Virus record (IMG/VR): IMGVR_UViG_3300042892_000699
DNA from: a virus
Taxonomy: Duplodnaviria > Caudoviricetes
Direction: 5' to 3' (one strand)
Length of the DNA stretch: 64,000 nucleotides
Shown: positions 18,810-49,283 of the stretch, piece by piece
Position numbering within the stretch: position 1 is the first letter of the stretch
How the letters are laid out: every line of letters begins with the position of its first letter
Program-made: the position numbers and the translations under genes
The notes under the pieces: generated by a model
What the model was told of the DNA's origin: nothing
What the model saw: only the letters and a program-made list of their open reading frames with translations
Database searches by the model: none

Positions 18810-18837
18810 AGTCTTGTATTTATGGCTAAATATCAGT
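18810..18837. promoter_or_regulatory. Back-to-back late promoters (TATTTA 18817-18822 on minus, TAAATA 18827-18832 on plus)
   Basis: The 28-bp divergent intergenic carries one TAAATA per strand, 7 and 5 nt before the respective ATGs. Confidence 0.7.
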
Positions 18838-19596
18838 ATGACTGAAAACGAAAACGAACGACAAAAGGTAATAGATTACTGCAAGACCATGCTGGGAGAT
18901 GGCATGATCGATGTAGAACTAGATCCTGTACATTACAACACTGCAATTGACCGTGCCTTAAACAAGTTTCGTCAACGCAGTAGTAACGCGGTAGAAGAAA
19001 GTTATGCATTTTTAACAGTGGAAGTTGATAAAAATGACTATACGCTGCCACCAGAAGTAATGGCTGTGCGTCAAATCTTTAGACGCAGTATTGGTTCTAG
19101 GTCAGGCGGTGGACAAGGTGGTACGCTGTTCGAACCGTTTAATCTTGCGTATTCTAATACTTACTTGTTGACTGCTACAAACATGGGTGGCCTAGCCACT
19201 TATTATGCCTTTGCAAGCTATCAAAAACAAGTGGGCAAAATGTTTGGCAGTGAGATAAACTTCACTTACAATAAAACTACCAAAAAGTTAACCCTAATGC
19301 AACGTCCTAGATCAGAGGAAGAAGTGCTGTTATGGGTATATAACTATCGTCCTGACTTTAATCTATTGCAGGACCCTTTTGCTAATCAATGGCTCAAAGA
19401 CTATTCATTAGCTACCTGCAAATCGATGTTGGGAGAAGCTCGTGAGAAGTTTAATCAGATTGCTAGTCCACAAGGCGGCACCGCTCTAAACGGAACTGCC
19501 CTAAAAGGAGAAGGCAAAGCTGAAATGGAAATGCTAGAGCTAGATCTAGTAAATTACAAAGACGGCGGAACACCACTTACTTTTGTAATTGGCTAA
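18838..19596 (+). CDS. gp13: Neck/head-tail adaptor, T4 gp13-like
   Basis: Start moved to ATG 18838; LGDGMIDVELD...AIDRAL..F, WLKDYSLATCK..LGEAREKF..IASPQGG..LNG, C-terminal PLTFVIG. Confidence 0.75.
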   Translation: MTENENERQKVIDYCKTMLGDGMIDVELDPVHYNTAIDRALNKFRQRSSNAVEESYAFLTVEVDKNDYTLPPEVMAVRQIFRRSIGSRSGGGQGGTLFEPFNLAYSNTYLLTATNMGGLATYYAFASYQKQVGKMFGSEINFTYNKTTKKLTLMQRPRSEEEVLLWVYNYRPDFNLLQDPFANQWLKDYSLATCKSMLGEAREKFNQIASPQGGTALNGTALKGEGKAEMEMLELDLVNYKDGGTPLTFVIG

Positions 19597-19604
19597 TAAA
19601 AATA

Positions 19605-19633
19605 TTGACAGAGTAATCTAAATGTAATAAATT
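19605..19633 (+). promoter_or_regulatory. sigma70-like promoter TTGACA-17-TAAATT
   Basis: Consensus -35 with a 17-nt spacer upstream of the dNMP kinase gene. Confidence 0.5.
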
Positions 19634-19652
19634 ATAACATCTAGGGGATGTT

Positions 19653-20309
19653 ATGATCATTGGCTTTGTTGGGTTTATAGGGTCGGGCAAAGATACTGCC
19701 GCAGATTATCTAGTTAATACACACGGGTTTAGAAGAGACTCATTTGCAAATACATTAAAAGACGCGGTTGCAGCCGTATTTGGTTGGGACCGCGTTCTGT
19801 TGGAAGGGCGTACAAAAGAAGCCCGGGAATGGCGAGAACAAGTAGACCCGTGGTGGGCTGAACGTTTAGATATGCCCAAATTAACTCCACGTTGGGTTCT
19901 ACAATATTGGGGTACAGAAGTATGTCGTACAGGGTTTCATGATGACATTTGGATTGCTTCTGTAGAAAACAAAATGCGTAAAACTACTGATAATATCGTT
20001 ATTAGCGATGTGCGATTTCCTAATGAAATCAAAGCAATTCATAATGCAGGCGGTATAGTAGTGCGTATCAAGCGCGGTGAAGAACCCGAATGGTATGATG
20101 CAGCAGTTAGTGCAAATTCTGGTCCAAATGGCAATGCTACTTGGAGTCTAAGTAAGGCTAAATTAGCGCAACTTAAAATTCACGCAAGTGAAACAGCATG
20201 GGTCGGTGGCGCAATTGACCACACTGTGTATAACAACACCACCATTGACGCACTGTTTGAACAAATTAAAAGTCTGGTCGAAGATCGCCTTGTCGCCACG
20301 GCAATTTAA
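19653..20309 (+). CDS. gp1: Deoxynucleoside monophosphate kinase, T4 gp1-like
   Basis: MIIGFVGFIGSGKDT P-loop, SFANTLKD, PRWVLQYWGTE, ISDVRFPNE, HASE. Confidence 0.9.
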   Translation: MIIGFVGFIGSGKDTAADYLVNTHGFRRDSFANTLKDAVAAVFGWDRVLLEGRTKEAREWREQVDPWWAERLDMPKLTPRWVLQYWGTEVCRTGFHDDIWIASVENKMRKTTDNIVISDVRFPNEIKAIHNAGGIVVRIKRGEEPEWYDAAVSANSGPNGNATWSLSKAKLAQLKIHASETAWVGGAIDHTVYNNTTIDALFEQIKSLVEDRLVATAI

Positions 20310-20601
20310 GTTTATGTAATAATCGTTGACAGTTAGCGCATACTGTTTTTAGATTAGTATATCTACAGTTGGTAAGATCTCCGTCAACGTGAAACACATT
20401 AAATTGTTCTAGATATTTCGAAGTAAAGCTGCATTTATCACATGTGGCTTTTTTCTTGTAGCCTGCTCTAGCCCATAATGGGGTACCTTCTCCCCTTTCT
20501 CTAGCACAATGATCGCACTTTGACCTATAGAATGGCTTGCCTTCCTTATAGTAGTTGATAGCAACCGGTCGTTGATTGCACTTTTTACATAAATCTCTCA
20601 T
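20266..20601 (-). CDS. Zinc-binding HNH-like protein (degenerate motif)
   Basis: CKKC, CDHC, CDKC; FHVDGDLTNCRYTNLKTVCANCQ resembles HHxDG..NN...NL..LCxxCH. Confidence 0.6.
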   Translation of the reverse strand: MRDLCKKCNQRPVAINYYKEGKPFYRSKCDHCARERGEGTPLWARAGYKKKATCDKCSFTSKYLEQFNVFHVDGDLTNCRYTNLKTVCANCQRLLHKLKLPWRQGDLRPDF

Positions 20602-20663
20602 CTTGCGCCCTTTTAATTGCCCTTTTCTTTGTATTTAATACCGGGAAAAAACAGCCAAACCGC

Positions 20664-20669
20664 TAAATA
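20664..20669 (+). promoter_or_regulatory. Late promoter motif TAAATA
   Basis: Upstream of the sheath gene; AGGAG RBS follows. Confidence 0.6.
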
Positions 20670-20703
20670 ATTTAAAGTAAAAATCCATTTAGGAGATCAG
20701 GTA

Positions 20704-23658
20704 ATGGCAACATTGAATTCACCAGGCGTACAAGTAACCGTAATCGATGAGAGTTTTTATACTCCATCAGCCCCAGGCACAGTGCCTATGGTATTTGTAG
20801 CGTCTGCACAAGATAAAACAAACCCTAGCGGTACAACCGCATTGGGTACAACCGCAGCAAATGCAGGTAAAGTTTGGTTGATTACAAGTCAACGAGATTT
20901 AACTGACACATTTGGTACTCCGGTTTTCTATACTGATGCTAGCAGTAATCCACAGCACGGTAATGAACTTAACGAGTACGGACTGCAAGCCACTTATAGT
21001 CTTTTAGGCGCAAGCTCGAGAGCGTACATTGTACGTGCTGATCTTGATTTAGGTGAACTAGTTCCAACTAGCAGCGTACCAGAAGGTAATCCTGTAGCAG
21101 GAACATACTGGCTAGATACAGATGCTAGCCTATATGGTGTTAAAGAATGGGACGCAAGTACATTGAAATTTACTTCTAAAACTCCTATAGTGTTAGATGA
21201 TACTTCTCCTGCTTCTAGCTTCAGCGGTACAGCACCTTCAAACTCTATCGGTTCTAAAGGAGACTTTTGTATTGTTGTTACAAACGATAATGCAAACACT
21301 CTTTACAGAAAATCTTCCGGTAATGCATGGGTAGCAGTTCAAGATTCTTTTGACAGCGGTAAGAGATATGTTGCTGCTCCTCACTATTCTTACCCAGTAT
21401 TCAACGCTAGTACAGCAACTGGTTCTGTATGGGTTACTACAACAACTCCATCAAACGGTGCAAACTGGAGCGTAAAATATTATAACGGTTCTACACAAGA
21501 CTGGAGCACAGTATCTGCTCCTATCTACAGTGGCGTCAACGAAGCAAACAGAACATTAGATCCTAACGGTGGCGGAACAAGCGTTGGCGTAGGTACATTG
21601 TTTGTTGATAGTAATATCAGCGATGCAACAACTGCAACCAGCACTTTCAAAGTGTGGAGAAAAGCAGTTGCAGGTGTAACGTCAGTTACAGGTTCTGCAA
21701 CAACAAATGCTTCAACAGGATCACATACATTTACTATTAGAGAAAGTAGAAATACAACCACTAACTACAGTGCTTCTTATACAATCACTTTAGCTGGTAC
21801 TACATCTTCTATCCTAGCATCTTTAATTCCAGCTGCTATCAGTGGATCACAATTACAGTATGTTACTGCATCATGGGATTCTACAAACAACAAGTTAACA
21901 ATGGCACACAGCCAGGGTGGTAACTTTGAAATGGTAGACGGCACAAGTAACCCATTAACAAAGATCGGATTTACAGCGTATGATGTAGTATTGCAATCAG
22001 GAACACCTAATCTATACACATCGCCTGCCGGAACTGGGCTAGTTGCAACTAACTGGAAACCTTTGGTTTACGAAGCAAGAGCAACTGCTCCTACAACAGA
22101 TCCAGCTGACGGAGCATTATGGTACAGCAGTGTTGTTGACGAAGTCGATGTGTTATATCACAACGGAACAACATGGGTTAGCTATCGAGATGCTACGGCA
22201 TTTCCTAACACAAGCCCCAACGGTCCTATTGTTAGCGCAACTGAACCAGATGCAGCTACTGGTCAAAGCGACGGAACTCAACTAGACACAGGTGACGTCT
22301 GGATCAGCACAGCTAATCTAGAAAGATTTGGTAAAGACATTTACGTTTACAGCACAACTAACGGATGGGTTTTACAAGACACCACTGATCAGTCTACTCC
22401 TGACGGATGGTTGTTTGCTGATGCACGTTGGGCAACATCTGGCAGTGCAACAGCACCTAGTACAATTGAAGCCTTACTAGCCAGCAACTACTTAGATCCA
22501 GATGCACCAGATCCAGCAATATATCCAAAAGGCATGCGCCTATGGAACACTCGCCGCAGTGGATTTAACGTTAAGAAATACATTGTAGGACATTTAAATC
22601 TAAATGCTAACAATGAACAAAACACTCGTTTCAACAACCAGTCTATGACTTCGTATGTTGCTGATCGTTGGGTAAGTCAATATCCAACAGCGGAAGACGG
22701 TAGTCCACAGTTTGGTCGTTTGGCACAGAGAGCACAAGTTGTAAATGCATTCAAAGAACTAATTGATTCTAACTCAACAATTCGTGACACTGATACATTA
22801 AACTTCAACTTGCTAGCAACACCAGGCTACCCGGAAGCTATTCAGAACATGATTGCATTCAATACCGATCGTGGCGTTACTGCATTTGTAGTAGGTGATA
22901 CTCCATTCCGTTTAGCACCAACTGGCACAGCACTAAGCAACTGGGGTAATAACACCGCCCTTGCATTAGACAACGGTGATGCTGGCGCAACAAGTTTTGA
23001 CGAATACATGGCTATGTACTACCCAAGTGGCTTCACTAACGATAACACTGGCAACAGTATTGTTGTTCCACCAAGCCACATGATGCTACGTACAATCATT
23101 AACAGTGATGCTAAGAGCTATCCATGGTTTGCTCCAGCAGGTACACGTCGTGGCGGAGTTGACAATGCCAGCAGCGTTGGATATGTTGATGCAGAAGGTG
23201 AATTCAGAACCGTTGCACTACACCAAGGACTACGTGATGTACTTGATGATGTTAAGATTAATCCAATTGCAACACTAACAGGTGTCGGAGTTTTAGCGTA
23301 TGGTCAACGTACTCGTGCAAGAAATGCTTCATCATTAGATAGAATTAACGTTGCTCGTTTAGTTTGCTACCTACGTAGACAGCTTGATGTTTTAGCAAGA
23401 CCGTTCTTGTTTGAACCTAATGATGCTCAAACACGTAGAGAAATTAAAGCAGCAGCAGAAAGCCTAATGTTAGAGTTAGTAGGTCAACGTGCCCTATATG
23501 ACTTTATTGTAGTCTGTGATGAAACAAATAACACACCAGCAAGAATTGATCGCAGTGAGTTGTATGTTGATATTGCTATTGAACCAGTTAAGGCCGTGGA
23601 ATTTATCTACATTCCATTACGCTTGAAAAATACTGGCGATATTGCAGCTGGACTATAA
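20704..23658 (+). CDS. gp18: Contractile tail sheath protein
   Basis: SPGVQVTVIDES N-terminus; PWFAPAGTRRG, INPI...G...YGQRT, SSLDRINVARL, FLFEPND..TR, CDETNNTP..IDR.EL.VDI.IEPVKAVEFI. Confidence 0.95.
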   Translation: MATLNSPGVQVTVIDESFYTPSAPGTVPMVFVASAQDKTNPSGTTALGTTAANAGKVWLITSQRDLTDTFGTPVFYTDASSNPQHGNELNEYGLQATYSLLGASSRAYIVRADLDLGELVPTSSVPEGNPVAGTYWLDTDASLYGVKEWDASTLKFTSKTPIVLDDTSPASSFSGTAPSNSIGSKGDFCIVVTNDNANTLYRKSSGNAWVAVQDSFDSGKRYVAAPHYSYPVFNASTATGSVWVTTTTPSNGANWSVKYYNGSTQDWSTVSAPIYSGVNEANRTLDPNGGGTSVGVGTLFVDSNISDATTATSTFKVWRKAVAGVTSVTGSATTNASTGSHTFTIRESRNTTTNYSASYTITLAGTTSSILASLIPAAISGSQLQYVTASWDSTNNKLTMAHSQGGNFEMVDGTSNPLTKIGFTAYDVVLQSGTPNLYTSPAGTGLVATNWKPLVYEARATAPTTDPADGALWYSSVVDEVDVLYHNGTTWVSYRDATAFPNTSPNGPIVSATEPDAATGQSDGTQLDTGDVWISTANLERFGKDIYVYSTTNGWVLQDTTDQSTPDGWLFADARWATSGSATAPSTIEALLASNYLDPDAPDPAIYPKGMRLWNTRRSGFNVKKYIVGHLNLNANNEQNTRFNNQSMTSYVADRWVSQYPTAEDGSPQFGRLAQRAQVVNAFKELIDSNSTIRDTDTLNFNLLATPGYPEAIQNMIAFNTDRGVTAFVVGDTPFRLAPTGTALSNWGNNTALALDNGDAGATSFDEYMAMYYPSGFTNDNTGNSIVVPPSHMMLRTIINSDAKSYPWFAPAGTRRGGVDNASSVGYVDAEGEFRTVALHQGLRDVLDDVKINPIATLTGVGVLAYGQRTRARNASSLDRINVARLVCYLRRQLDVLARPFLFEPNDAQTRREIKAAAESLMLELVGQRALYDFIVVCDETNNTPARIDRSELYVDIAIEPVKAVEFIYIPLRLKNTGDIAAGL

Positions 23659-23662
23659 TAGG

Positions 23663-23668
23663 TAAATA
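23663..23668 (+). promoter_or_regulatory. Late promoter motif TAAATA
   Basis: Upstream of the tube gene; AAGGAG RBS follows. Confidence 0.6.
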
Positions 23669-23689
23669 AAAGAATAAGGAGCATTAAAG

Positions 23690-24337
23690 ATGCCAATTGC
23701 AAGTTTAAATAGATTCACAGTACCGTTGAGCGCCACACAGGCAGCATCAACTCAGGGTCTGTTGATGCCAAAATTAAAGTACCGCTTCCGCGTTACATTA
23801 GACAATTTCGGTGTCCAGGGTACTCCTTCTACTGAATTAACTAAACAAGTTATGACAGTAAGCAGACCTAGCGTTAGTTTCACAACAGTTGAACTACCTG
23901 TATATAACAGCACTGTAAAAATTGCTGGTAAGCACAAGTGGGAAGACGCTGAACTAAAATTACGCGATGACGCAAGTGGAGTTGTAAGCAAGAAAGTAGG
24001 CGAGCAACTTCAGAAGCAGTTTGACTTTTTTGAACAAAGTGCGGCAGCAAGCGCAATCGATTATAAGTTTAGAATGCGAGTTGAAATTTTAGATGGTGGT
24101 AACGGACAATTTGAACCTGTTACACTAGAAAGTTTTGAATTTCTAGGATGCTGGGTAACTAAAGCAACATATCAAGGCGGAGACTACTCAAGTAACGACC
24201 CAATGGATGTTACGTTAGGTATCTGTTATGATAATGCAATTCAATTAGAAGCACCAGGCGGCACAGCAAGCGGTATCGGCTTAGATGTAGGTCGTGTTGT
24301 AAGACCAGCTGGCGCTCAAGGACTAGCTACAGGTTAA
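23690..24337 (+). CDS. gp19: Tail tube protein
   Basis: Follows the sheath gene; PKLKYRFRV, RPSVSF, KIAGKHKWE..L.LRDD, ICYDNA. Confidence 0.85.
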   Translation: MPIASLNRFTVPLSATQAASTQGLLMPKLKYRFRVTLDNFGVQGTPSTELTKQVMTVSRPSVSFTTVELPVYNSTVKIAGKHKWEDAELKLRDDASGVVSKKVGEQLQKQFDFFEQSAAASAIDYKFRMRVEILDGGNGQFEPVTLESFEFLGCWVTKATYQGGDYSSNDPMDVTLGICYDNAIQLEAPGGTASGIGLDVGRVVRPAGAQGLATG

Positions 24338-24357
24338 TAGTTTTATTGACTATAATC

Positions 24358-24382
24358 AAGCCCAGAATATCTGGGCTTTTTC
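24358..24382 (+). terminator. Rho-independent terminator
   Basis: AAGCCCAG-aatat-CTGGGCTT followed by a T tract, after the tube gene. Confidence 0.8.
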
Positions 24383-24388
24383 TTTGAC

Positions 24389-24394
24389 TAAATA
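24389..24394 (+). promoter_or_regulatory. Late promoter motif TAAATA, 5 nt before ATG
   Basis: CTAAATATTCATATG. Confidence 0.65.
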
Positions 24395-24399
24395 TTCAT

Positions 24400-25524
24400 A
24401 TGAGTAATGCCTTTAATAATTTTCTAACATCTTCTAACTCTAGTTATACCTCCGGGTACCCTGTGATGAAGGACTATCAACATGCTAGTCGATTGTATGT
24501 TGATAGTACATATGCAAGGGCCCCAAAATTTGGGTTTATCTATTTTGTACAAATTAATTTAAATTCTGATGCAATTATTGATCAACAATGGTTAAGTCAG
24601 CGAGGTAGTAAAGACGTAGGATTGCTTGCAAAGAAAACAGATTTACCTAGATTTACAGTAGCCACTGAAACTGTAAATCAATATAATAGAAAAACAGTAG
24701 TTCAAACAAAATTAACATACTCGCCTATTACAATAGAACTACACGATGACAACAGTAACCTAACACATAATCTATGGTTAAATTATTTTAAACATTATTA
24801 TGCAGACAGCAACTATGGTGATCTAGATTCAGGTACTGTTAAGGCTAGAACAAGCCCTGAGGCCTTTAGAGATACAAAATATGGAACTATAGATTATACA
24901 TACGGACGTTACGATAGAGGACTAAAAGATAATCAGTTTATCAAGTCCATTGACATCTATGTTCTTCATCAAAAGAAATTCACACAATATACTTTAATTA
25001 ATCCACTTATAACTGAATGGGCACATGATAACGTTGCTCAGAGTGACGGTGGTAAAATTTTACAAAATAAGATGCAGGTATCTTATGAAACAGTGATATA
25101 TAAAACTGGGGCAGTTAACCCTGGAAAGTCTCCCGAGACATGGATTCCTATTTACTACGACAACACTCCTAGTCCTTATGGAGTTAAAGGAGATCCGTTT
25201 CCCGAGAAGAAAATTGTTTACAGGCCTCCTGCAAATTCAAATCCATTATTAGATATTGCTAAAATTTTAGCAAAGAATTATATTAACAAAAATGGTTTAG
25301 GGAAAGCAAAGGGCGTGGGCTACAATATTGCATCAAGCGCACTAGGTGCAATATCTGCAACTAGTCCCGGAAAATACTCAAGCCCACCTAGTACTCAAAA
25401 TCAACCCGGAATTTTTAACTTGCCCGGAGGTATCGGGATAAACATATTCAAAGGTTTCAATACCAGTGTTGATGGAAAAATTAGAGCAAATCCTGCAGCC
25501 ATCATATTCCCACCTAAGAGATAA
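24400..25524 (+). CDS. Tube-like baseplate protein (gp48/gp54-like tube initiator or cap)
   Basis: DLPRFTVATETVNQYNRK.VVQTK..Y.PI.I..HDD, YTLINPLITEW..D tube-fold motifs. Confidence 0.6.
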   Translation: MSNAFNNFLTSSNSSYTSGYPVMKDYQHASRLYVDSTYARAPKFGFIYFVQINLNSDAIIDQQWLSQRGSKDVGLLAKKTDLPRFTVATETVNQYNRKTVVQTKLTYSPITIELHDDNSNLTHNLWLNYFKHYYADSNYGDLDSGTVKARTSPEAFRDTKYGTIDYTYGRYDRGLKDNQFIKSIDIYVLHQKKFTQYTLINPLITEWAHDNVAQSDGGKILQNKMQVSYETVIYKTGAVNPGKSPETWIPIYYDNTPSPYGVKGDPFPEKKIVYRPPANSNPLLDIAKILAKNYINKNGLGKAKGVGYNIASSALGAISATSPGKYSSPPSTQNQPGIFNLPGGIGINIFKGFNTSVDGKIRANPAAIIFPPKR

Positions 25525-25526
25525 TT

Positions 25527-26332: not shown

Positions 26333-26336
26333 AAGT

Positions 26337-26816
26337 ATGACAAAGCGACTAGAAGAATTACTTAATATAGAAACCGGCGAGCCCGTTATTGCTGCCAAAC
26401 CTGTTGATGCTGAACCTGTAGCAACTATTGACTTACAAGAAAAACTAGAAGAGTTTGATAAAATTGCGTCTGCTTTACCTAGAGTTAAAGGGCTAGGAGA
26501 TATGGCTGATGGTGAATTAGATGCACTAGCCGACAAAGCAGAAAAAGCCTACGATGATCTAATGGATCTAGGCATGAATGTAGAAGCACGTTATGGCGCA
26601 CGTATGTTTGAAGTTGCAGCCAGCATGATGACACAGGCTATTGCTGCAAAGAGTGCTAAAATAGATAAGAAGTTAAAGATGGTTGATCTACAGTTAAAGA
26701 AGCTGGCGATCGACAAAAAGCACGGAGGCGAAAGTGGAGAAACTGTGCAAGGTGAAGGATATATACTTACGGACCGTAATAGTATCCTTGAAAAACTTAA
26801 AAATTTGAATAAATAA
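26337..26816 (+). CDS. Probable terminase small subunit (gp16-like)
   Basis: Start moved to ATG 26337; helical ARMFEVAASMM..AIAAK...LQLKK and C-terminal ILTDRNSILEKLK resemble the gp16 architecture; upstream of the large subunit. Confidence 0.5.
   Translation: MTKRLEELLNIETGEPVIAAKPVDAEPVATIDLQEKLEEFDKIASALPRVKGLGDMADGELDALADKAEKAYDDLMDLGMNVEARYGARMFEVAASMMTQAIAAKSAKIDKKLKMVDLQLKKLAIDKKHGGESGETVQGEGYILTDRNSILEKLKNLNK
26810..26815 (+). promoter_or_regulatory. Late promoter motif TAAATA, 7 nt before ATG 26823
   Basis: TAAATAAATCATCATG. Confidence 0.55.
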
Positions 26817-26822
26817 ATCATC

Positions 26823-27410: not shown

Positions 27411-27411
27411 T

Positions 27412-28065: not shown

Positions 28066-28082
28066 TCAAACTTGTTTTACCA

Positions 28083-28110
28083 AATAGCCTCTTCGGAGGC
28101 TATTTTTTTT
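28083..28110 (+). terminator. Rho-independent terminator with UUCG loop
   Basis: AATAGCCTC-TTCG-GAGGCTATT plus T tract. Confidence 0.9.
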
Positions 28111-28112
28111 AG

Positions 28113-28118
28113 TAAATA
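28113..28118 (+). promoter_or_regulatory. Late promoter motif TAAATA, 5 nt before the terminase ATG
   Basis: GTAAATACTGCTATG directly after a terminator, so a new transcript must start here. Confidence 0.7.
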
Positions 28119-28123
28119 CTGCT

Positions 28124-29704: not shown

Positions 29705-29710
29705 TAAATA
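29705..29710 (+). promoter_or_regulatory. Late promoter motif TAAATA, 6 nt before ATG
   Basis: ATAAATAACACATATG. Confidence 0.65.
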
Positions 29711-32224: not shown

Positions 32225-32274
32225 TTGGCAAAAATAACCGTATTTTCGTAGCCGTATAGGTTGCGATAATAAAT

Positions 32275-32314
32275 AAAACTGTGCATACTAAACACATGCA
32301 CAGTTTTTCTTTTT
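32275..32314 (+). terminator. Perfect 12-bp inverted repeat followed by T-rich tract (terminator or operator)
   Basis: AAAACTGTGCAT-actaaacac-ATGCACAGTTTT then TCTTTTT, upstream of the gp32 gene. Confidence 0.55.
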
Positions 32315-35170: not shown

Positions 35171-35172
35171 CT

Positions 35173-35196
35173 AAAAAAGGACTTGCGTCCTTTTTT
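35173..35196. terminator. Bidirectional Rho-independent terminator
   Basis: AAAAAAGGAC-TTGC-GTCCTTTTTT. Confidence 0.8.
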
Positions 35197-35211
35197 GTTT
35201 TCCTGTATAAT
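35183..35211 (+). promoter_or_regulatory. sigma70-like promoter TTGCGT-17-TATAAT, 6 nt before ATG 35218
   Basis: Spacer counted as 17 nt; the -35 lies in the terminator loop. Confidence 0.65.
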
Positions 35212-35217: not shown

Positions 35218-36396
35218 ATGAGTATTGAAGACCTAATTATTCTCCTTGCAATGAAGACCCAAATGAATCCCTATGATTCAAAAATGGTTTGGAGCTTCCA
35301 TGATCAAATTTCTAGAGGTCTTGGATTCACTGAAAAACAGGCAATTCTTGCAGTTCGAATACTGCAAAGACAAAAAGAAAAATTAACGCAGATACTTGGA
35401 CAAGATATCACAAATTTTCTGGAAAATCCCACATATAGAGTACCCCGTAGAACTATCAATTCTAACAAACGAATCTCTGTGATTGCTCATAGTGAATACA
35501 CTAAGGCAATCAAAGTGGAATTTCCTTATAATGAAACCATCTTGGAGAGAATTAGAAAAGAGCGTCCTAATTTGATACACGCGGAATGGGATAAAGATGA
35601 AAAAGCATGGATTTTTGCACTGAACGAACGTAGCATACAATTCCTGATCTCGTTTGTTGAGAAGGACGAGTTCACTGCTGACGAAGAATTTGTTAATTAC
35701 ATTGAGCAAATACTGGCTATTCAAGAAAATCTTGAAAATTTTGTACCTATGGTCAGTTATACCGAAAAAATGCCAAAATTTATCAATGTAAGCCATCGTG
35801 TGCCTCAACCTGAAACCACAGATTTGTTGGACTCGCTATTTTTAGCAAGAAAAGTCGGTATACATACATGGGATGATAGTGTCAGTGAGTACCTGGCTGA
35901 AAATAATATTGAACAATCTGTAATAGATTTCCTAAATGAAAATCCAGGGGTGAATTTTACCGTAAATTTGGAAGAATCTACAATTTACGACATTTCTCGT
36001 ATTGTTAAAAATCTGTCTCCTTGCATGTTTATCATACCGGGCGGCCTGGAGATGGAAAAAATTACAAAAAGTTATGAATTTTTAAAATCACTTGATATCA
36101 CTCCTGAAGAAATGAGTGTGATGTTTAGACTACCTAAAGAAACTGGTGAAAAATTCAATAAATTTATCAAAGACGAGCAACTAAACAATCCCATCACTGA
36201 AAAAACTCGTGCAGTGTTTATCAGCGGCAAGGTACCGAAGACAGTTATCGAATCAAAAATTAAATTCAATTGTGTTGTAAACTTCAGCCTACATAGTGTA
36301 CACTATACAATACGAGAATTTGTGAAAAATCACCATAATGTGATTCACATACTGGACAAAAAACCACAAAGGAATTTTAACTTTGCCATACTGTAA
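35218..36396 (+). CDS. Hypothetical protein
   Basis: 392-aa ORF overlapping the uvsW start; no motif recognised. Confidence 0.7.
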   Translation: MSIEDLIILLAMKTQMNPYDSKMVWSFHDQISRGLGFTEKQAILAVRILQRQKEKLTQILGQDITNFLENPTYRVPRRTINSNKRISVIAHSEYTKAIKVEFPYNETILERIRKERPNLIHAEWDKDEKAWIFALNERSIQFLISFVEKDEFTADEEFVNYIEQILAIQENLENFVPMVSYTEKMPKFINVSHRVPQPETTDLLDSLFLARKVGIHTWDDSVSEYLAENNIEQSVIDFLNENPGVNFTVNLEESTIYDISRIVKNLSPCMFIIPGGLEMEKITKSYEFLKSLDITPEEMSVMFRLPKETGEKFNKFIKDEQLNNPITEKTRAVFISGKVPKTVIESKIKFNCVVNFSLHSVHYTIREFVKNHHNVIHILDKKPQRNFNFAIL

Positions 36397-41614: not shown

Positions 41615-41634
41615 AGTGATATATACTATAGAAC

Positions 41635-42571: not shown

Positions 42572-43356
42572 AAATTTTGATTACAGGGTATAAAGGTTTT
42601 ATTGGTCAAAATATGGTCAATGCACTAAATGACGAACACGAACTGTCTCTTTTTGAATGGGGAGAAGAACTTCCAGATTTTAGAGGCTTAGACTGGTGCA
42701 TACATTTAGGAGCAAATTCGTCTACTACTGAAATGGATGTAGACAAGATGCTAGATCAGAATTATGATTTTAGTAGACTTGTTATCAATCAATGTCAGGC
42801 AAACAATGTAAATTTGCAATATGCAAGTTCTGCAAGCGTATATGGACTAGGAAAAGAATTTAACGAAAATGCACCTGTTCATTTGCTAAGTCCATATGCA
42901 TGGAGCAAATATCTTTTTGAAAGATATGTAAGTGGATTTAGAGAAAAATGGTCTAACATAACAGTCCAGGGATTTAGGTATTTCAACGTGTATGGACCTC
43001 ATGAAGATCATAAAGGTGATCAGTCTAGCCCTCATCATAAGTTTACCAAGCAGGCAGAAGCTACCGGAGTTATCAAGCTATTTGAAAATTCTGAGAATTA
43101 CAAACGTGATTTTATTTCTGTACATGAAGTAGTTAGTATTCATAAAAAGTTTTTTAACGTAACTGAATCTGGTATTTGGAATGCCGGTACAGGTCGCGCT
43201 ACATCGTTTGATAACGTTGCTCGAACAATTGCAGAAGGAATGAAATGTAGAGTTGAATATATTCCTATGCCTGATAATGTTAAAGCACATTATCAAACAT
43301 ACACATGTGCTGATGTAACTAACCTAAGAAAGTATTATGACCCGAGTAATGGTTAA
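42568..43356 (+). CDS. hldD: ADP-L-glycero-D-manno-heptose 6-epimerase (extended SDR)
   Basis: ITGYKGFIG, HLGANSSTTE.D...M..NY, YASSASVYG, YAWSK, RYFNVYGPHE.HKG, RDFI, YQTYTCAD. Confidence 0.85.
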   Translation: MKILITGYKGFIGQNMVNALNDEHELSLFEWGEELPDFRGLDWCIHLGANSSTTEMDVDKMLDQNYDFSRLVINQCQANNVNLQYASSASVYGLGKEFNENAPVHLLSPYAWSKYLFERYVSGFREKWSNITVQGFRYFNVYGPHEDHKGDQSSPHHKFTKQAEATGVIKLFENSENYKRDFISVHEVVSIHKKFFNVTESGIWNAGTGRATSFDNVARTIAEGMKCRVEYIPMPDNVKAHYQTYTCADVTNLRKYYDPSNG

Positions 43357-43741
43357 CGGAACATTTGATATTCTGCATCGAGGTCATATTGAAATGCTCA
43401 ACTTTGCTAAAAGCAAAGGAGATGCGGTACTGGTTGTGATTGATACTGATCGTAGAGTGCAAGAGTTAAAAGGTGATGATCGTCCTATTAACAACCAAGA
43501 AGATCGTAAATTTCATTTAGAAAATTTAAAAGCAGTTGACAGTGTATTGTTTTTTGACAGCAAAGAACAACTTATAGAAATAATGAAAAGCTGGAAACCA
43601 GACGTGTATGTAAAAGGCAGCGACTGGAAAAAAGATAGACCTAGCACAGCAGAAGAATATTGTAAAGAAGTGATCTATTATGACAGAGTCGGCGAATACT
43701 CAACTACCAACACCATTCAGAATATTATTAATCGGGGATGA
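43337..43741 (+). CDS. Heptose-1-phosphate nucleotidyltransferase (HldE domain II / HldC-like)
   Basis: NGTFDILHRGH, D..V..LKG..RPIN....R...L, PDVYVKGSDW, C-terminal GEYSTT. Confidence 0.8.
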   Translation: MTRVMVNGTFDILHRGHIEMLNFAKSKGDAVLVVIDTDRRVQELKGDDRPINNQEDRKFHLENLKAVDSVLFFDSKEQLIEIMKSWKPDVYVKGSDWKKDRPSTAEEYCKEVIYYDRVGEYSTTNTIQNIINRG

Positions 43742-44447
43742 TTGCTTAGATGTTTATCAGTTTGGAACTGTTGACAGAATAAGTCCCGAGGCACCTGTTC
43801 CTGTATTCAAATATAGCTCTAAGGAAGAAAGAGCAGGCATGGCTCGTAATGTCAAACTCAATCTTGAAGCACTGGGCTGTGAAGTTACATACCTATGCGG
43901 AGAAACAAGTGTTAAGACCAGATTAATCGATTCCAAAAGTAAACAACACATTGTAAGAATTGACAATGATGTTAAATCTAATCCTATTGAATTTGCTTCG
44001 GCTATTCCTGCGATTTACGACGCAGTTGTGATCAGTGACTACAACAAAGGTACAGTTAGCTACGAATTAATCGAAGAACTCGTTGCTTTGAGCATACCAG
44101 TGTTCATAGACACTAAAAAGACTGACTTAGAACGTTTTCAAGGTGCATGGGTTAAGATTAATGAACTAGAGTATAGCAGATTAACAAGCGAGTGTGCTGG
44201 GTTAATTGTTACATTAGGTAGCAAAGGTGCTAGACTATGGGACGAAGTGCATCCAAGTAAACAAGTAGAAGTAAGTGATGTTTGTGGATGTGGTGATACT
44301 TTTTTGGCGGCACTAACCACTCAATACCTATATACAAATGATATAAAGAAAGCTATAATGTTTGCTAACGTTGCCGCAGGATTAACTGTACAACATTTAG
44401 GAAATTACGCACCATCATACGACGAGATTAGAAATGCCGGATATTGA
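43680..44447 (+). CDS. Heptose-7-phosphate kinase (HldE domain I / HldA-like, PfkB family)
   Basis: IGDDCLDVY..G.V.RISPEAPVPV, ISDYNKG, KINELE, DVCGCGDTF, AN.AAG..V. Confidence 0.85.
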   Translation: MTESANTQLPTPFRILLIGDDCLDVYQFGTVDRISPEAPVPVFKYSSKEERAGMARNVKLNLEALGCEVTYLCGETSVKTRLIDSKSKQHIVRIDNDVKSNPIEFASAIPAIYDAVVISDYNKGTVSYELIEELVALSIPVFIDTKKTDLERFQGAWVKINELEYSRLTSECAGLIVTLGSKGARLWDEVHPSKQVEVSDVCGCGDTFLAALTTQYLYTNDIKKAIMFANVAAGLTVQHLGNYAPSYDEIRNAGY

Positions 44448-45024
44448 TATCGACTTTGCTGATAGAACAAAAATTCTCAAAATTATCGAGCATGTACCAG
44501 CGGCTATTAAAGATAATGGAACTTTTAAAAAGCACAATACTGGCGTATATTGTCATTCTATCCCGTACAATTCCATAACTGATACTGCTAGCTTTGACTA
44601 TAAAGAAGCTGAAAACCGCGGGTATTTTAAGATTGACCTATTAAATGTTGGAATTTACAAAGATGTACGAGATGAAGAACATCTCTTAAAATTATTAAAT
44701 CAAGAACCACTATGGGATCTTTTACAACAGGACGATTTCACTAATATGTTGTTCCATGTGAACGGTCACGGATCAATTCTAAGACAGATGTTGCCAAATA
44801 GCATAAGTCAATTGGCTGCGGTATTAGCTATGATTAGACCGGCAAAACGCTATCTAATTGGACAAGACTGGAATACTGTAAACGCAGAAATTTGGCAAAA
44901 GCCTGCGGGTAATGAGTATTATTTTAAAAAAGCTCACGCTATAGCATATGCGGCAGCTATTGTAGTTCAAATGAACTTAATTTGCGAAGGTCTTACTTCC
45001 TCGCATTCCTTATTAGCTGAATAG
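44434..45024 (+). CDS. Miniature DnaE (Pol III alpha, family C)-like catalytic core
   Basis: MPDIDIDF, KHNTGV, GYFKIDLL, LAAVLAMIRP and YFKKAHAIAYA are collinear with DnaE motifs PDFDVDF, KHAGGV, GLVKFDFL, ALFRP and FNKSHSAAYA in only 196 aa. Confidence 0.75.
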   Translation: MPDIDIDFADRTKILKIIEHVPAAIKDNGTFKKHNTGVYCHSIPYNSITDTASFDYKEAENRGYFKIDLLNVGIYKDVRDEEHLLKLLNQEPLWDLLQQDDFTNMLFHVNGHGSILRQMLPNSISQLAAVLAMIRPAKRYLIGQDWNTVNAEIWQKPAGNEYYFKKAHAIAYAAAIVVQMNLICEGLTSSHSLLAE

Positions 45025-45361
45025 ATTTACGTTTTACTCTCTTTTCAGCAATTTCGCTTAGATTAACACTAGGACCAAATACTAACTCTATGTCTTTTAC
45101 ATTAAAAGTTTTTATAAAGGGTCGGAATACATGCATTTCTTTTTTAAGAAAAATGTTTATGGGTATTTTTCTGTTACTTTCCCACCACCAGACTTCACCC
45201 ATTTCTAGGAAAATCTGTCGTTCCTCGACTCCTACGATCATAGATAGATCGTAGATGCTAGCAACATAATCATCAAAGTTAATAACAATACCTACATATT
45301 CCTTATCATTGGATTTTAAGCAGGTTATGAACGGAAAGTTTTCTTGGAACTGGTCTCTCAT
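44993..45361 (-). CDS. Hypothetical protein
   Basis: 122 aa; converges on and overlaps the mini-DnaE. Confidence 0.65.
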   Translation of the reverse strand: MRDQFQENFPFITCLKSNDKEYVGIVINFDDYVASIYDLSMIVGVEERQIFLEMGEVWWWESNRKIPINIFLKKEMHVFRPFIKTFNVKDIELVFGPSVNLSEIAEKRVKRKSIQLIRNARK

Positions 45362-45371
45362 TAGTTTAAAA

Positions 45372-45377
45372 TAAATA
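45372..45377 (+). promoter_or_regulatory. Late promoter motif TAAATA, 4 nt before ATG
   Basis: ATAAATACTTTATG. Confidence 0.55.
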
Positions 45378-45381
45378 CTTT

Positions 45382-46218
45382 ATGCAAAATTTACCAGTCT
45401 ATTTATATAATTACAAACTCGATGTAACATTAGATTTGGACGCTACTGTAAGAGGAGTAAACCAGGTTATGTACCAGCGAGACCTAAAGATACAAAAAGG
45501 TATCAAAAATCAAGTTAGAATTCAGTTTAAAAATAGCGACCAAAAAAATGTTAGAATCTACAACACGCAAACATTTGTATTCAGTATGTTTGATGCTATC
45601 AATCAGAGATTAATAGTTGAAAAACAAATCGAAGTACTAGATGTAGCAACTACTTCAACCAAGGGATTAGCTATACTAACTCTTAATGAGAGTGATACAT
45701 TAGATTTAGATAGAACCAGTTATCAATATACAATTAAACTTAGAGAATCTGATGGAGCCTATCTCCCAACTTATTCTAATACTTACTACGGAATGGCAGG
45801 AACCCTGCATCTAAGTTCTGAAGTATTTCCTGTTCTCAAAGACAGCACCACTATAAACACGTTTAATATTACATACAACGACGATATACAGAAGTATGAG
45901 CATAAGAGTGGAAACATCTATGCTAACCCAGAATACAATGGTAATAGCGCATTGCACACATTAGCCATGTACATGACCGGATATAAGGGGACCGTATACA
46001 TTCAAGGAACCCTGGACAACACTCCGGGATCAAGTGGAAATTATTCTAACATCGTTACCAAGACTTATACTGGATTTACCGGAATAGATTCGATTAACTT
46101 TAATGGTGTCTATACCTATATTAGAATTCTACATGTTCCTGGAACTGCACCTGCAGAATCTAATAATGATAATCCTAGTTTCTTCGGATCGTTTGACAAA
46201 GCACTTTACAGAAGCTAA
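45382..46218 (+). CDS. Beta-rich hypothetical late protein (Ig/baseplate-upper-like N-terminus)
   Basis: KGIKNQVRIQFKNSDQK, GLAILTL...L....YQY; late promoter. Confidence 0.45.
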   Translation: MQNLPVYLYNYKLDVTLDLDATVRGVNQVMYQRDLKIQKGIKNQVRIQFKNSDQKNVRIYNTQTFVFSMFDAINQRLIVEKQIEVLDVATTSTKGLAILTLNESDTLDLDRTSYQYTIKLRESDGAYLPTYSNTYYGMAGTLHLSSEVFPVLKDSTTINTFNITYNDDIQKYEHKSGNIYANPEYNGNSALHTLAMYMTGYKGTVYIQGTLDNTPGSSGNYSNIVTKTYTGFTGIDSINFNGVYTYIRILHVPGTAPAESNNDNPSFFGSFDKALYRS

Positions 46219-46221
46219 ACT
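46193..46221 (+). promoter_or_regulatory. sigma70-like promoter TTGACA-17-TAAACT, 6 nt before the primase GTG
   Basis: Spacer counted as 17 nt. Confidence 0.6.
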
Positions 46222-46227
46222 GTATAT

Positions 46228-47232
46228 GTGAACGATATACAATCTGCATTACTGACATTACTGCCTTCTAAGAGGAAACTTACATCCGGTGGATGGACCA
46301 GTTTTAATGCTCCCTGCTGTCATCACAGAGGAGAACGTCAAGATGAAAAACTGCGTGGCGGTATTAGAGTAGAGAATGACGGGTTTGTATATCATTGTTT
46401 CAATTGTGGATTTGCCGCAGGATGGACTCCTGGTAAAATTCTAAGCAAGAATACCAAAAGCCTATTTCAATGGATAGGCATGAATGAGATAGACATAGGT
46501 AAACTTAATCTTGCGGCACTCAAGATCAAAGATGACCAGCCCGTTCTTAAGAAAGCACTAAATTTAGTATTATTAGAAAAACCCTTGCCCGATGGCACAA
46601 TGTCTGTAATGGAATGGATTAATACCGGGTACTTGCCCGATGTAGCAGAAGACATTGGCAAGATAGTAGAATACATTTTAAGTAGGGGTATGGAGCTCGA
46701 TTGGTACAATTGGATGTGGAGTCCTGCATCGGGCTATGTAGATAGAGTACTAATACCGTTTTATCAAGATGGAAAGGTAGTAGGATACACTGGCAGAAAA
46801 ATCAATCCCGGCAACCCTAAGTACTTGACAGATAGTCAAAGTGGATATGTTTTTAATTTGGATCGTCAAGGGTGGAATCGTCAATGCGTCATAGTCGTAG
46901 AAGGACAATTTGATGCTATAGCTATAGATGGCGTAGCCATTATGACGAACGAGCCTAACGATGCCCAGATTGCAAGATTGACTGGATTAGGAAAAGAAAT
47001 TATAGTAGTACCAGACAGAGATCGCCCCGGTGCCAAGATGCTCAAATCAGCAATAACCAATGGCTGGAGTGCTAGTTTGCCTCCGTGGGGCGATGACGTC
47101 AAAGATGTAGCAGATGCTGTAAAGAAATATGGACGACTGTATGTGTTAGCCACAATCTTGCACTACAAGGTTGCGGGCGAGATAAAAATAAATCTAATGA
47201 AGAAGAAACTAGAAGCGTTAAGAGATGAATAA
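46228..47232 (+). CDS. gp61: DNA primase (DnaG-type, T4 gp61-like)
   Basis: Zn-binding APCC...YHCFNCGF, IPFY..GKVVGYTGR, Toprim VVEGQFDA, PDRD..G, KDVAD. Confidence 0.85.
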   Translation: MNDIQSALLTLLPSKRKLTSGGWTSFNAPCCHHRGERQDEKLRGGIRVENDGFVYHCFNCGFAAGWTPGKILSKNTKSLFQWIGMNEIDIGKLNLAALKIKDDQPVLKKALNLVLLEKPLPDGTMSVMEWINTGYLPDVAEDIGKIVEYILSRGMELDWYNWMWSPASGYVDRVLIPFYQDGKVVGYTGRKINPGNPKYLTDSQSGYVFNLDRQGWNRQCVIVVEGQFDAIAIDGVAIMTNEPNDAQIARLTGLGKEIIVVPDRDRPGAKMLKSAITNGWSASLPPWGDDVKDVADAVKKYGRLYVLATILHYKVAGEIKINLMKKKLEALRDE

Positions 47233-48697
47233 AAAAGAAAAACCACAAAAACCCAATTATGACTTTGAAGTGCAAAAGCTGTACTTGGAAATGTTTCTAA
47301 GTGATGCTGAGACGTTTGTACGTTGTCAAAATATTTTTGATCCCAAAAACTTTGATCAGCGACTGCAAGAAAGTGCAGAGTTCATTACAAAATATGTAGA
47401 TGAATACAAGGTAATGCCCGAGGCCAATATCGTCAACGCATCTACAAGAAGTCAGTATAACCCAGTTGCATTGCCCAGAGAAAACTATGAATGGTTAATG
47501 AATGAGTTTGAAAACTTTAGCAGACACAAAGGACTAGAAAGGGCAATTATCGAGTCTAGTGATTTGTTAGAGTCCGGAGACTACGGTCCAGTTGAAAAAC
47601 TAATTAAGGATGCTATACAGATATCTCTAAACAAAGATATGGGTACAGATTACTTTGAAGATCCCAGAGCACGTCTGACTAAACTTAAAGATGGCAATGG
47701 GCAGATCAGCACAGGATGGCCCAGCATTGATAAGAAATTATACGGCGGATTTAACCGAGGTGAACTGAATATCTTCTGTGCTGGATCAGGTGGCGGCAAG
47801 AGTTTGTTCTTAGCCAACTTAGGAGTGAACTGGGCACTAGCTGGACTTAATGTCTTATATCTTACATTTGAATTAGCCGAAGGCCTCGTAGGTATGCGAC
47901 TCGATAGTATGATGACAGGTATTACAACTCGAGAGATCTTTAAGAACATCGACGACGTTGAACTCAAGGTCAAGATGTTGGGCAAGAAGAGTGGTAACTT
48001 ACAGGTTAAGTATATGCCATCGGGCAAGAACTGTAACGATATCCGTGCCTACTTGAAAGAGTATCAGGTCAAGAAAGGTTGCAAGCCCGACGTTATTCTA
48101 ATTGACTATTTGGACTTGATGATGCCGTTGAGTGTTAAAGTTAGCCCAAGTGACCTGTTCGTTAAGGACAAGTATGTGTCGGAAGAAATTCGTAACTTGG
48201 CTATGGAAACACAATGTATCACAGTCACAGCGTCACAGTTAAACCGTAGTGCTGTTGAAGAAATTGAGTTTGATCACAGCCACATCTCGGGCGGATTGAG
48301 TAAGATTATGACGGCGGATAATGTTATCGGTATCTTTACCAGTCGTGCTATGAAAGAACGTGGGCGGTATCAAATACAGTTTATGAAGACACGTAGTTCT
48401 AGTGGTGTTGGGCAAAAAGTTGATCTAGAGTTTAATGTAGATACATTGCGTATTAGCGACCTAGGTGAAGATGAGCAAGAAGGCAGTTTTAATCAGCAAC
48501 GGCAACAGGGTGGCGGAAGTAGTGTCTATGCAGGCCTAAAAAGGACCAGCACAGTGTCAACTACTACTGATCCCGAAACTGGAGAAATTATTCCAATTGA
48601 TCCTACAAAAGGTGTAGCTGTTAGTAAAAATAAACACGCCAAGGGTGTTGCCGACATTAGAAGTATGTTGGCTAATTTAAATCCTGAAAAAGATTAA
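47225..48697 (+). CDS. gp41: Replicative helicase (DnaB / T4 gp41-like)
   Basis: STGWPSIDKKLYGGFNRGELNIFCAGSGGGKSL, IDYLDLM, ASQLNR, HISGG.SK...ADNV, MKTR. Confidence 0.9.
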   Translation: MNKKEKPQKPNYDFEVQKLYLEMFLSDAETFVRCQNIFDPKNFDQRLQESAEFITKYVDEYKVMPEANIVNASTRSQYNPVALPRENYEWLMNEFENFSRHKGLERAIIESSDLLESGDYGPVEKLIKDAIQISLNKDMGTDYFEDPRARLTKLKDGNGQISTGWPSIDKKLYGGFNRGELNIFCAGSGGGKSLFLANLGVNWALAGLNVLYLTFELAEGLVGMRLDSMMTGITTREIFKNIDDVELKVKMLGKKSGNLQVKYMPSGKNCNDIRAYLKEYQVKKGCKPDVILIDYLDLMMPLSVKVSPSDLFVKDKYVSEEIRNLAMETQCITVTASQLNRSAVEEIEFDHSHISGGLSKIMTADNVIGIFTSRAMKERGRYQIQFMKTRSSSGVGQKVDLEFNVDTLRISDLGEDEQEGSFNQQRQQGGGSSVYAGLKRTSTVSTTTDPETGEIIPIDPTKGVAVSKNKHAKGVADIRSMLANLNPEKD

Positions 48698-49254
48698 AAC
48701 CAATTTGCAATTTGTAAACGACCTGATTCAGCTATAACTTTGTGCCACTGGTCAATATCATCTGATCCAAATACAGTTTCGACTTCAGCAGGAGCATAAC
48801 TCCATGAACTCCATGAATGCCAAGGTTCTTTTCCTGCAACTTCCCCTTCAATGTGTCCGGGCAACCAACGTGTAAATCCTGCAACTACTCTGAAATGTTC
48901 AGGACCTTCTCCCTTGCTTATTGCGGCAAGAACTGAAACATCATGACTTACTCCAATTCGATTTGTAACTTTAGTAGTGTTAGATGTATACCAGTCTAGA
49001 CTATGTATTACATGTATTCTATTAGTTGACTCTTGACCGCCGTTGTATAAAGGCTGGTCTTGATCTGTATGTAAGCCTACATTCTGCATTACAGTTTGAA
49101 ACGTGATATCATTTGTAAATGGTTTATTGATCTGGAGTCCTATAGCCCCGGTTGCATCATGATCTAATATTAGCAATACTCCTTTACGAAGAATCGGTTC
49201 CTGTCGTCTAGGATGAGCTGCTAAAAGATAACCTCTATAATTTTGTTCAATCAT
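48694..49254 (-). CDS. YqgE/AlgH (DUF179) family protein
   Basis: LLAAHP...LILDHDATGAIGLQINKP, LYNGG, VAGFTRWLPGHIEGE...W. Confidence 0.8.
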   Translation of the reverse strand: MIEQNYRGYLLAAHPRRQEPILRKGVLLILDHDATGAIGLQINKPFTNDITFQTVMQNVGLHTDQDQPLYNGGQESTNRIHVIHSLDWYTSNTTKVTNRIGVSHDVSVLAAISKGEGPEHFRVVAGFTRWLPGHIEGEVAGKEPWHSWSSWSYAPAEVETVFGSDDIDQWHKVIAESGRLQIANWF

Positions 49255-49283
49255 AATAATATTTAATCAATAAATAATATTCT
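49255..49283. promoter_or_regulatory. Back-to-back late promoters (TATTTA 49260-49265 minus; TAAATA 49271-49276 plus)
   Basis: 29-bp divergent intergenic, with motifs 5 and 7 nt from the ATGs. Confidence 0.55.

Follow-up and report, generated by a model that had tools for sequence, protein, structure and literature searches.

TAAATA boxes of T4 late-promoter type placed against start codons in a lake jumbo myophage, and the probable leaderless late messages that they would give

The DNA considered here raises the question of whether a phage of the T4 superfamily transcribes part of its late genes as leaderless messages, from promoters whose box lies so near the start codon that hardly any 5′ untranslated region (UTR) is left. 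The stretch analyzed (64,000 nucleotides (nt), IMG/VR virus record IMGVR_UViG_3300042892_000699, hereafter the window) is part of an uncultured freshwater (lake) jumbo myophage. An earlier note on this DNA had pointed to nine genes in which TAAATA, the core of the T4-type late promoter, stands 4-7 nt before the ATG; all nine sites were found at the coordinates claimed, with exactly the gaps given. Leaderless late messenger RNAs (mRNAs) from T4-type promoters are the best reading of these sites and, in our judgement, a probable one. The nine boxes are as follows, each with its gap to the ATG and the length of the product in amino acids (aa); genes are named by the position of the ATG.

18817..18822, minus strand: TAAATA box, gap 7 to ATG 18809(-), 402-aa virion/neck protein (17601-18809)
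18827..18832, plus strand: TAAATA box, gap 5 to ATG 18838, head-tail adaptor, 252 aa
24389..24394, plus strand: TAAATA box, gap 5 to ATG 24400, 374-aa tail-tube-like protein
26810..26815, plus strand: TAAATA box, gap 7 to ATG 26823, 195 aa, virion protein family; the box overlaps the stop of the upstream gene
28113..28118, plus strand: TAAATA box, gap 5 to ATG 28124, large terminase (terL), 526 aa
29705..29710, plus strand: TAAATA box, gap 6 to ATG 29717, 835-aa virion structural protein after terL
45372..45377, plus strand: TAAATA box, gap 4 to ATG 45382, 278-aa virion structural protein
49260..49265, minus strand: TAAATA box, gap 5 to ATG 49254(-), 186 aa, function unassigned
49271..49276, plus strand: TAAATA box, gap 7 to ATG 49284, 230 aa, phrog_36119; twin of the box at 49260

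The set comprises the terminase, two neck/adaptor proteins, one tube-like protein, three other virion-family proteins and two proteins without assigned function. Four of the genes form two divergent pairs, 18809(-)/18838 and 49254(-)/49284, in which the 28 and 29 nt, respectively, between the two ATGs are filled by back-to-back boxes.

As the window is about 60% A+T and its intergenic regions are richer still, it is conceivable that an A/T-rich hexamer and an ATG have merely been paired by chance. However, when the gap histogram was set against 5000 dinucleotide shuffles of the 50-nt upstream regions, the 4-7-nt spacing emerged far above background, with a box at 9 of 81 gene starts where 0.49 would be expected on average (maximum 5 in any shuffle). 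Before ATGs of the window that are not gene starts, a box at this distance occurs 2 times in 2271. The hexamer is also depleted in the window, with 33 copies on both strands against 72 +/- 8 expected from dinucleotide shuffles, and 17 of the 33 lie at most 40 nt upstream of a same-strand gene start. The gaps of these 17 copies are bimodal (4, 5, 5, 5, 5, 6, 7, 7 and 7, then 20-38, with none at 8-19). The full T4 octamer, TATAAATA, has three copies in the window and shows no enrichment, so that the claim is narrowed here to the 6-bp core TAAATA. In a complete relative of 322.5 kb (G007), TAAATA has fewer copies (149) than any other of the 15 permutations of its letters, yet it tops them in the number of sites 4-7 nt before the ATG of a long open reading frame (ORF), with 21 against 1-16 for the other 14. 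Since the pattern is in addition conserved in up to 77 relatives per gene, the shuffles, the permutations and the conservation exclude chance pairing, to which we give practically no credence.

Conservation was followed in IMG/VR relatives, for which the terminase, the adaptor (18838) and gene 45382 served as queries and gave 80 loci each; the orthologous start was found by tblastn and the distance to the nearest upstream TAAATA then measured. A TAAATA box is present in every relative scored, and its distance from the ATG is held closely: the gap is 5 in 69 of 74 relatives of terL (38 unique gap-5 sequences), in 43 of 44 of gene 24400 (22 distinct box contexts) and in 74 of 77 of gene 18838 (66 unique gap-5 sequences), 4-7 in 77 of 77 of gene 29717, and 4 or 5 in 71 of 76 of gene 45382. 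Gene 18809(-) is looser, with gap 7 in 46 of 70 relatives and 3-8 in 66 of 70, and the twin boxes that it shares with 18838 are kept in most relatives. The letters of the spacer differ in almost every relative while the box stays. For gene 49284 a single relative locus was found, and it was identical, leaving the pair 49254(-)/49284 without comparative support. Gene 26823 has a gap of 5-8 in 40 of 55 relatives, and in the other 15 the same box is followed by a leader of 17-23 nt with AGGA or GGAA; because these 15 pair the same box with a Shine-Dalgarno (SD)-like leader, the leaderless and leadered layouts interconvert in evolution, the SD arising where room exists for it.

A second signature lies in the bases next to the start codon. 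At the 188 unique gap-5 sites the base before the ATG is T in 81% and C in 18% (a pyrimidine in 99%), and a pyrimidine occupies -1 at all gap-4, gap-6 and gap-7 sites as well. A pyrimidine at -1 with a purine at +1 is the usual start preference of bacterial RNA polymerase. In the same 188 sequences positions -5 to -2 are free but A+T-rich, spacer A+T being 60-82% per position, whereas all six letters of TAAATA are invariant across sites and relatives; upstream of -13 no conserved letter was found except the T tracts of terminators, and hence no -35 element. In T4, TATAAATA spans -13 to -6 and an A+T-rich segment follows it, while Aeh1 varies at -13/-12 (PMC2988020). With the box in the T4 position, a 5-nt gap would place +1 on the A of the ATG. 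Where the promoters of the clade have leaders, a purine stands six bases after the box in 80-100% of relatives and frequently five bases after it as well; the purine at the sixth base fits the start geometry of T4. Among the gap-7 and gap-8 sites (relatives of 18809(-), 26823 and 29717), 52 of 54 unique sequences have A at -3, in the pattern A-Y-Y-ATG, and their messages may carry a 3-nt leader starting at this A(-3). Such a pattern points to a preference for leaders of precisely 0 or 3 nt above those of 1-2 nt.

The argument depends on the ATG beside the box being the one that is used. It is the first ATG, GTG or TTG after an in-frame stop at 8 of the 9 window sites, the start of 18838 being settled by 77 of 77 relatives, and in nearly all relatives it is the uppermost start in the ORF. 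No stop was found in the first 12 codons in any relative, and across codons 2-12 diversity is highest at the third codon position (0.22/0.11/0.51 at positions 1/2/3 in gene 18809(-), 0.28/0.08/0.49 in gene 29717). Codons 2-12 are thus under purifying selection, and the ATG beside the box is very probably the true translation start. The start codon is ATG at 9 of 9 window sites, against 55 of 72 other genes on a crude gene list (17 of 72 having GTG or TTG), and it is ATG in 77 of 77, 76 of 76 and 68 of 70 relatives. In Escherichia coli-type systems an AUG start is needed for recognition at the 5′ terminus.

Two of the boxes are immediately preceded by intrinsic terminators:

24358..24378, plus strand: intrinsic-terminator hairpin, 9 bp and T tract, directly upstream of the 24389 box
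28082..28105, plus strand: intrinsic-terminator hairpin, 10 bp and T tract, directly upstream of the terL box

These hairpins are the two best-scoring terminators of the late region and end 7-10 nt before the boxes. Both are kept in relatives through different stem sequences, with a mean folding free energy (dG) of -15.2 kcal/mol (z -5.4) before gene 24400 and of -13.8 kcal/mol (z -5.0) before terL, where, in 28 of 44 unique relatives, 7 nt separate the stem from the box. With terminators directly adjacent and only 28-29 nt between divergent genes, new transcripts would have almost nowhere to start but at the ATG.

It is here that the most serious alternative has to be met, namely that the boxes are real promoters but that the adjoining genes are translated mainly from read-through or polycistronic mRNAs by SD-independent internal initiation, the leaderless transcripts serving mainly downstream genes of the operon and the tight spacing reflecting genome compaction. 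Such an arrangement is plausible at the boxes at 26810 and 29705, which overlap or abut the stop of a co-oriented upstream gene; many window genes away from boxes also lack a clear SD, and leaderless translation in E. coli is inefficient. However, two of the boxes have a strong, conserved terminator immediately before them, and the two divergent pairs have no upstream co-oriented gene from which a message could read through. Further, compaction alone would not fix a gap of 5 in 93-98% of relatives, a pyrimidine at -1 in 99% and ATG as the only start codon. We therefore consider translation from read-through messages unlikely as the main mode, and leaderless messages the probable one.

The late genes that do have leaders bear on a further alternative. 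As the earlier note had claimed, the sheath and tube genes carry the same TAAATA with a longer leader and AGGAG, and a third leadered gene diverges from 45382:

20664..20669, plus strand: TAAATA box, 34-nt leader with AGGAG before the tail sheath gene (20704)
23663..23668, plus strand: TAAATA box, 21-nt leader with AGGAG before the tail tube gene (23690)
45400..45407, minus strand: full TATAAATA inside the opening codons of 45382; leader of 38 nt for gene 44993-45361(-)

Box, leader and AGGAG of the sheath gene are kept in about 60 relatives. The leadered promoters drift more in their spacing, the gap being 19-23 in 35 of 42 relatives of the tube gene and 32-41 (47 in one) in 75 of 76 of gene 44993-45361(-). 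SD-like motifs occur at about 60% of leadered TAAATA genes, at 0-5% of the leaderless type (0 of 9 in the window, 1 of 20 in G007) and at 12% of random ATGs; a gap of 4-7 nt leaves no room for one.

It might be proposed that TAAATA is no promoter at all but an A/U-rich, non-SD enhancer of translation acting in the RNA, either S1-dependent or similar to the TAAAAA motif of Flavobacterium. Indeed, GeneMarkS-2 reports a TAAAAA-like non-SD motif in Flavobacterium with a spacer peak near 7 nt (PMC6028130), Bacteroidota are common in lakes, and the G+C content of the phage is about 40%. However, the same hexamer stands 20-38 nt upstream of SD-led late genes such as sheath and tube, beyond the SD itself; its six letters are invariant, unlike degenerate A-rich enhancers; it is depleted elsewhere in the window (both strands together); and it matches the late box of T4 and Aeh1 in a clade that has gp55. 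In addition, the early region carries nine near-consensus sigma70 promoters and AAGGAG sites, and such canonical signals imply that the host is not a Bacteroidota-type system. An enhancer in the RNA is accordingly very improbable, and a Bacteroidota-type non-SD ribosome-binding site is rejected in view of the far-upstream box at SD-led genes, the match to the T4 box and the canonical early signals.

A promoter of T4 type calls for a T4-type phage and a late sigma factor. Megablast of 10 kb of the window against cultured phages gave no nucleotide match; the large terminase, at 55.6% identity, is closest to terL of Pseudomonas phage PA5oct, the closest cultured relative, with remoter matches in Sinorhizobium phage Phosso and the Serratia BF/Erwinia group. 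The genes and their order follow the T4 pattern and include sheath stabilizer, neck/adaptor proteins, deoxynucleoside monophosphate (dNMP) kinase, sheath, tube, tube-like protein, head closure, terminase, SSB, UvsX, UvsY, helicase and primase. As for the sigma factor, the phrog_234 profile, recognized as that of gp55 by means of the T4 gene itself, matches one ORF of about 310-320 aa in each long contig of the relatives (G002, G007, G008, G009 and G010, or 5 of the 5 contigs long enough, E 1e-24 to 1e-26). In G010, a close relative whose adaptor protein is 90% identical to that of the window, this ORF matches phrog_12791, “sigma factor for late transcription,” end to end (7.6e-84) and, like gene 55 of T4, has a gp47-like SbcD gene as its neighbor. 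The same sigma family is present in PA5oct (phrog_12791, E 6e-83) and in Phosso. The G010 protein (L246:1453-2418 (-)) has about 320 aa against 185 aa for T4 gp55; its gp55-like part is the C-terminal half (residues 184-304), and the N-terminal half has no assigned function.

Taken together, these data allow a model of late expression to be proposed. The host RNA polymerase, with a phage late sigma factor of the gp55 family, would read the TAAATA core of a T4-type late promoter. In T4 the start is at the sixth base after the box; here transcription would accordingly begin at the A of the start codon where the gap is 4-6, and at the conserved A(-3) where it is 7-8. The resulting mRNAs would have a 5′ UTR of 0-3 nt and no SD, and the ribosome would bind the 5′-terminal AUG. 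One promoter type would in this way serve two modes of initiation, leaders of 20-38 nt with AGGAG at sheath and tube on the one hand, and on the other a leaderless mode that would go with the packaging enzyme, the neck and minor virion proteins. The leaderless mode is favored because box and spacing are conserved around free spacers, the base at -1 is a pyrimidine, only ATG is used, terminators stand upstream and the clade has a gp55-family sigma factor. The central claim of the earlier note has in this respect gained strong comparative support, with the 5′ ends still set by geometry. Its proposal of two tiers, SD-led for abundant and leaderless for low-copy proteins, holds as to layout, sheath and tube being SD-led and terminase, neck and minor virion proteins of leaderless type, whereas the link to copy number is conjectural and the G007 set includes enzymes; “low-copy or catalytic” is a fair summary of the leaderless-type set as it may be read from the predicted products. 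That leaderless genes might resist translational shut-off, as the note also suggested, is speculation.

Several points weigh against this model. The 5′ ends of the mRNAs are inferred from promoter geometry only, and the mode of translation is likewise read from the sequence. The gp55-family sigma factor is known from the contigs of relatives only, and the profiles for gp33, the co-activator of T4 late transcription (phrog_254), and gp45, its sliding clamp and activator (phrog_223, PF02916), gave nothing significant in G007-G010 while recovering the T4 genes, although these proteins of the clade may be too divergent for the profiles. The letters at -13/-12 are not TA as in T4, -13 being mostly A or G and -12 mostly A or C, and a gap of 7-8 requires either a start 1-2 nt farther from the box than in T4 or a 3-nt leader. 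The relatives share ancestry, and the counts given above are thus not counts of independent events. Clues to the host are limited to the canonical sigma70 and SD signals and a lipopolysaccharide (LPS)-heptose operon. Finally, leaderless translation is weak in E. coli, and 5′ extensions lower it.

Whether the layout is peculiar to this clade was asked with a uniform procedure, in which the distance is taken from each box to the closest ATG that comes first in its ORF and begins a frame of 80 codons or more (60 in T4). In G007, TAAATA has 16 sites at gap 4-7, of which gap 5 is the commonest with 8, as well as 20 at gap 4-9 and a broad leadered class at 16-40; the leaderless-type genes of this genome (L248-L264, e.g. 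L262:693-1193 (-)) include those for a baseplate wedge, peptide deformylase, a ClpS-like protease adaptor and a polynucleotide-kinase-like protein. In T4, TATAAATA gave no gap below 13, the gaps being 13-34 nt, apart from three of 52-78, and the SDs obvious. In PA5oct, 1 of 69 box-proximal starts for TAAATA has a gap of 4-7, and this one is the orthologue of 45382 (144985, TAAATA-N5-ATG); in Phosso and Serratia BF, the region around terL showed leadered TAAATA sites only. By contrast, HTVC008M has a sharp peak of 12 long-ORF ATGs at gap 5 from TAAATA, plus one at gap 4; TAAATA is its rarest permutation, and it has a gp55 homologue (E 3.5e-66). The box-at-ATG layout, as far as these genomes tell, is lineage-specific but not unique to the lake clade.

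The likeness to T4 is close in several respects, as TAAATA corresponds to -11 to -6 of T4, there is no -35, the DNA after the box is A+T-rich, the genes served are late structural ones, a gp55-family sigma gene lies (in relatives) beside a gp47-like gene, and sheath and tube have SD-bearing leaders. Unlike T4, however, which has no gap below 13, the phage has 4-7 nt between box and ATG at about half of its promoter-proximal starts, the bases at -13/-12 are not TA (in this the promoters resemble the Aeh1 variant) and the sigma factor has about 320 aa rather than 185. HTVC008M, a cultured T4-like myophage of Pelagibacter/SAR11, is alike in its gp55 homologue and in TAAATA at gap 5, but it is of another lineage (Kyanoviridae, 147 kb), and its boxes are often the complete TATAAATA; no description of its box-at-ATG layout was found in the papers searched. 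PA5oct shares the late sigma family, TAAATA before several late genes and the gene order around terL, but differs in having leaders of 16-40 nt with SD-like sites; the paper describing it reports sigma70-like promoters only.

Leaderless late transcripts have been mapped in the Thermus phages phiYS40 and Lalka27a, whose messages for the most part lack leaders and begin with the A or G of the start codon itself, and in which a phage-specific late -10-type box directs the transcription start site 6 bp downstream (bioRxiv 10.64898/2026.04.20.719267). These phages resemble the present one in their dense late promoters and in twin promoters within divergent intergenic regions. They differ in their box (TAGGGT plus C at -25), in phage family and in host phylum (Deinococcus-Thermus, in which mRNAs are as a rule leaderless); moreover, their 5′ ends were mapped, whereas those considered here are inferred from sequence. 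In bacteria, GeneMarkS-2 takes a -10 box that precedes the start by 6-8 nt as the mark of leaderless transcription (PMC6028130). Bacterial leaderless mRNAs (lambda cI from PRM; Actinobacteria and Deinococcus, “group C,” PMC6028130) share with the present sites a start-proximal -10-type box, the lack of an SD and a start codon at the 5′ end, but they depend on a housekeeping sigma factor, whereas here a phage gp55-family sigma factor tied to a temporal class of genes would be at work. In the literature searched on leaderless mRNAs in connection with gp55, T4-like phages and cyanophages, no account was found of T4-type late promoters fused to start codons.

The earlier note had further listed three sigma70 promoters ending 6 nt before a start codon. 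Those at 46228 and 62785(-) were found, whereas at 35218 only a -10 element is present:

46193..46221, plus strand: sigma70-type promoter, TTGACA-17-TAAACT, 6 nt before GTG 46228 (primase)
35206..35211, plus strand: TATAAT, 6 nt before ATG 35218, without a good -35, directly after terminator 35172-35197
62792..62820, minus strand: sigma70 promoter, TTGACT-17-TATAAT, 6 nt before ATG 62785(-), 95-aa early ORF

The -35 of the 46228 promoter is embedded in the last codons of the upstream gene 45382, and its TTGAC is kept at synonymous sites in 61 of 64 unique relatives, even though Asp is more often encoded by GAT (791 vs 503). The primase start in the 64 unique relatives, 5-6 nt after the -10, is ATG in 39 and GTG in 24; the GTG at 46228 is a possible leaderless GUG start, which would be poor in E. 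coli-type systems. The module of terminator, TGnTATAAT, 6 nt and ATG at 35218 is kept in about half of 31 relatives, while for gene 62785(-) no homologue was found among the fetched loci of the relatives. The G+C content, 38-42% as far as about 56 kb, rises to 48% over the final 8 kb, the early region. There, nine near-consensus TTGACA-17-TATAAT promoters (11-12 of 12 matches) occupy about 5.3 kb of higher G+C (58165-63438 (-)), and most then have leaders of 25-31 nt with TAAGGAG.

Several other arrangements around late boxes deserve mention. The leader of gene 44993-45361(-) is antisense to the 5′ end of the 45382 message, an arrangement kept in 75 of 76 relatives and in PA5oct, and the overlap could couple the divergent pair by antisense action or promoter interference. 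Gene 20266-20601(-) has a 30-nt leader (20602-20637) with two copies of AAAAGGGC between TAAATA and ATG, both kept in about 50 relatives; the pair may be the operator of a translational repressor or a double SD-like site. The tail-fiber gene 4848 (1522 aa) has TAAATA 22 nt upstream (window 4820-4847) and a leader without recognizable SD. At 32270-32307, between the 835-aa virion gene and the SSB gene, TAAATA is followed by a 14-bp hairpin that scores as a minus-strand terminator, with a T run on the plus strand; the box may serve no gene, the site may give rise to a short RNA, or the arrangement may be fortuitous.

To our knowledge, all described T4 late messages carry leaders with ribosome-binding sites. 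In the lake clade, about every second late gene next to a T4-type late promoter appears to have this promoter fused to its ATG, and 12-13 genes of HTVC008M seem to share the layout. This is not a new kind of mechanism, as leaderless mRNAs, gp55-type promoters and the leaderless late transcripts of Thermus phages are already known. A more ambitious proposal is that aquatic phages of the T4 superfamily (the lake jumbo clade and, independently, SAR11 myophages) run a dedicated leaderless tier, in which a gp55-type start on the AUG sets a low output of enzymes and minor virion proteins and keeps their translation going when SD-led initiation is shut down or changed late in infection, the choice between a 0-nt and a 3-nt (A-Y-Y-AUG) leader serving as tuning; taken as a whole, we regard this as quite improbable. 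If the leaderless reading is true, gene callers and start annotation for these phages should adopt a promoter-at-start model, promoter spacing would be a readable predictor of the mode of expression (leaderless or SD-led), and the compact module of terminator, promoter and ATG would be available to synthetic biology. Abundant aquatic phages would then rely routinely on leaderless initiation in late expression, in hosts whose sigma70 and SD signals are otherwise canonical.

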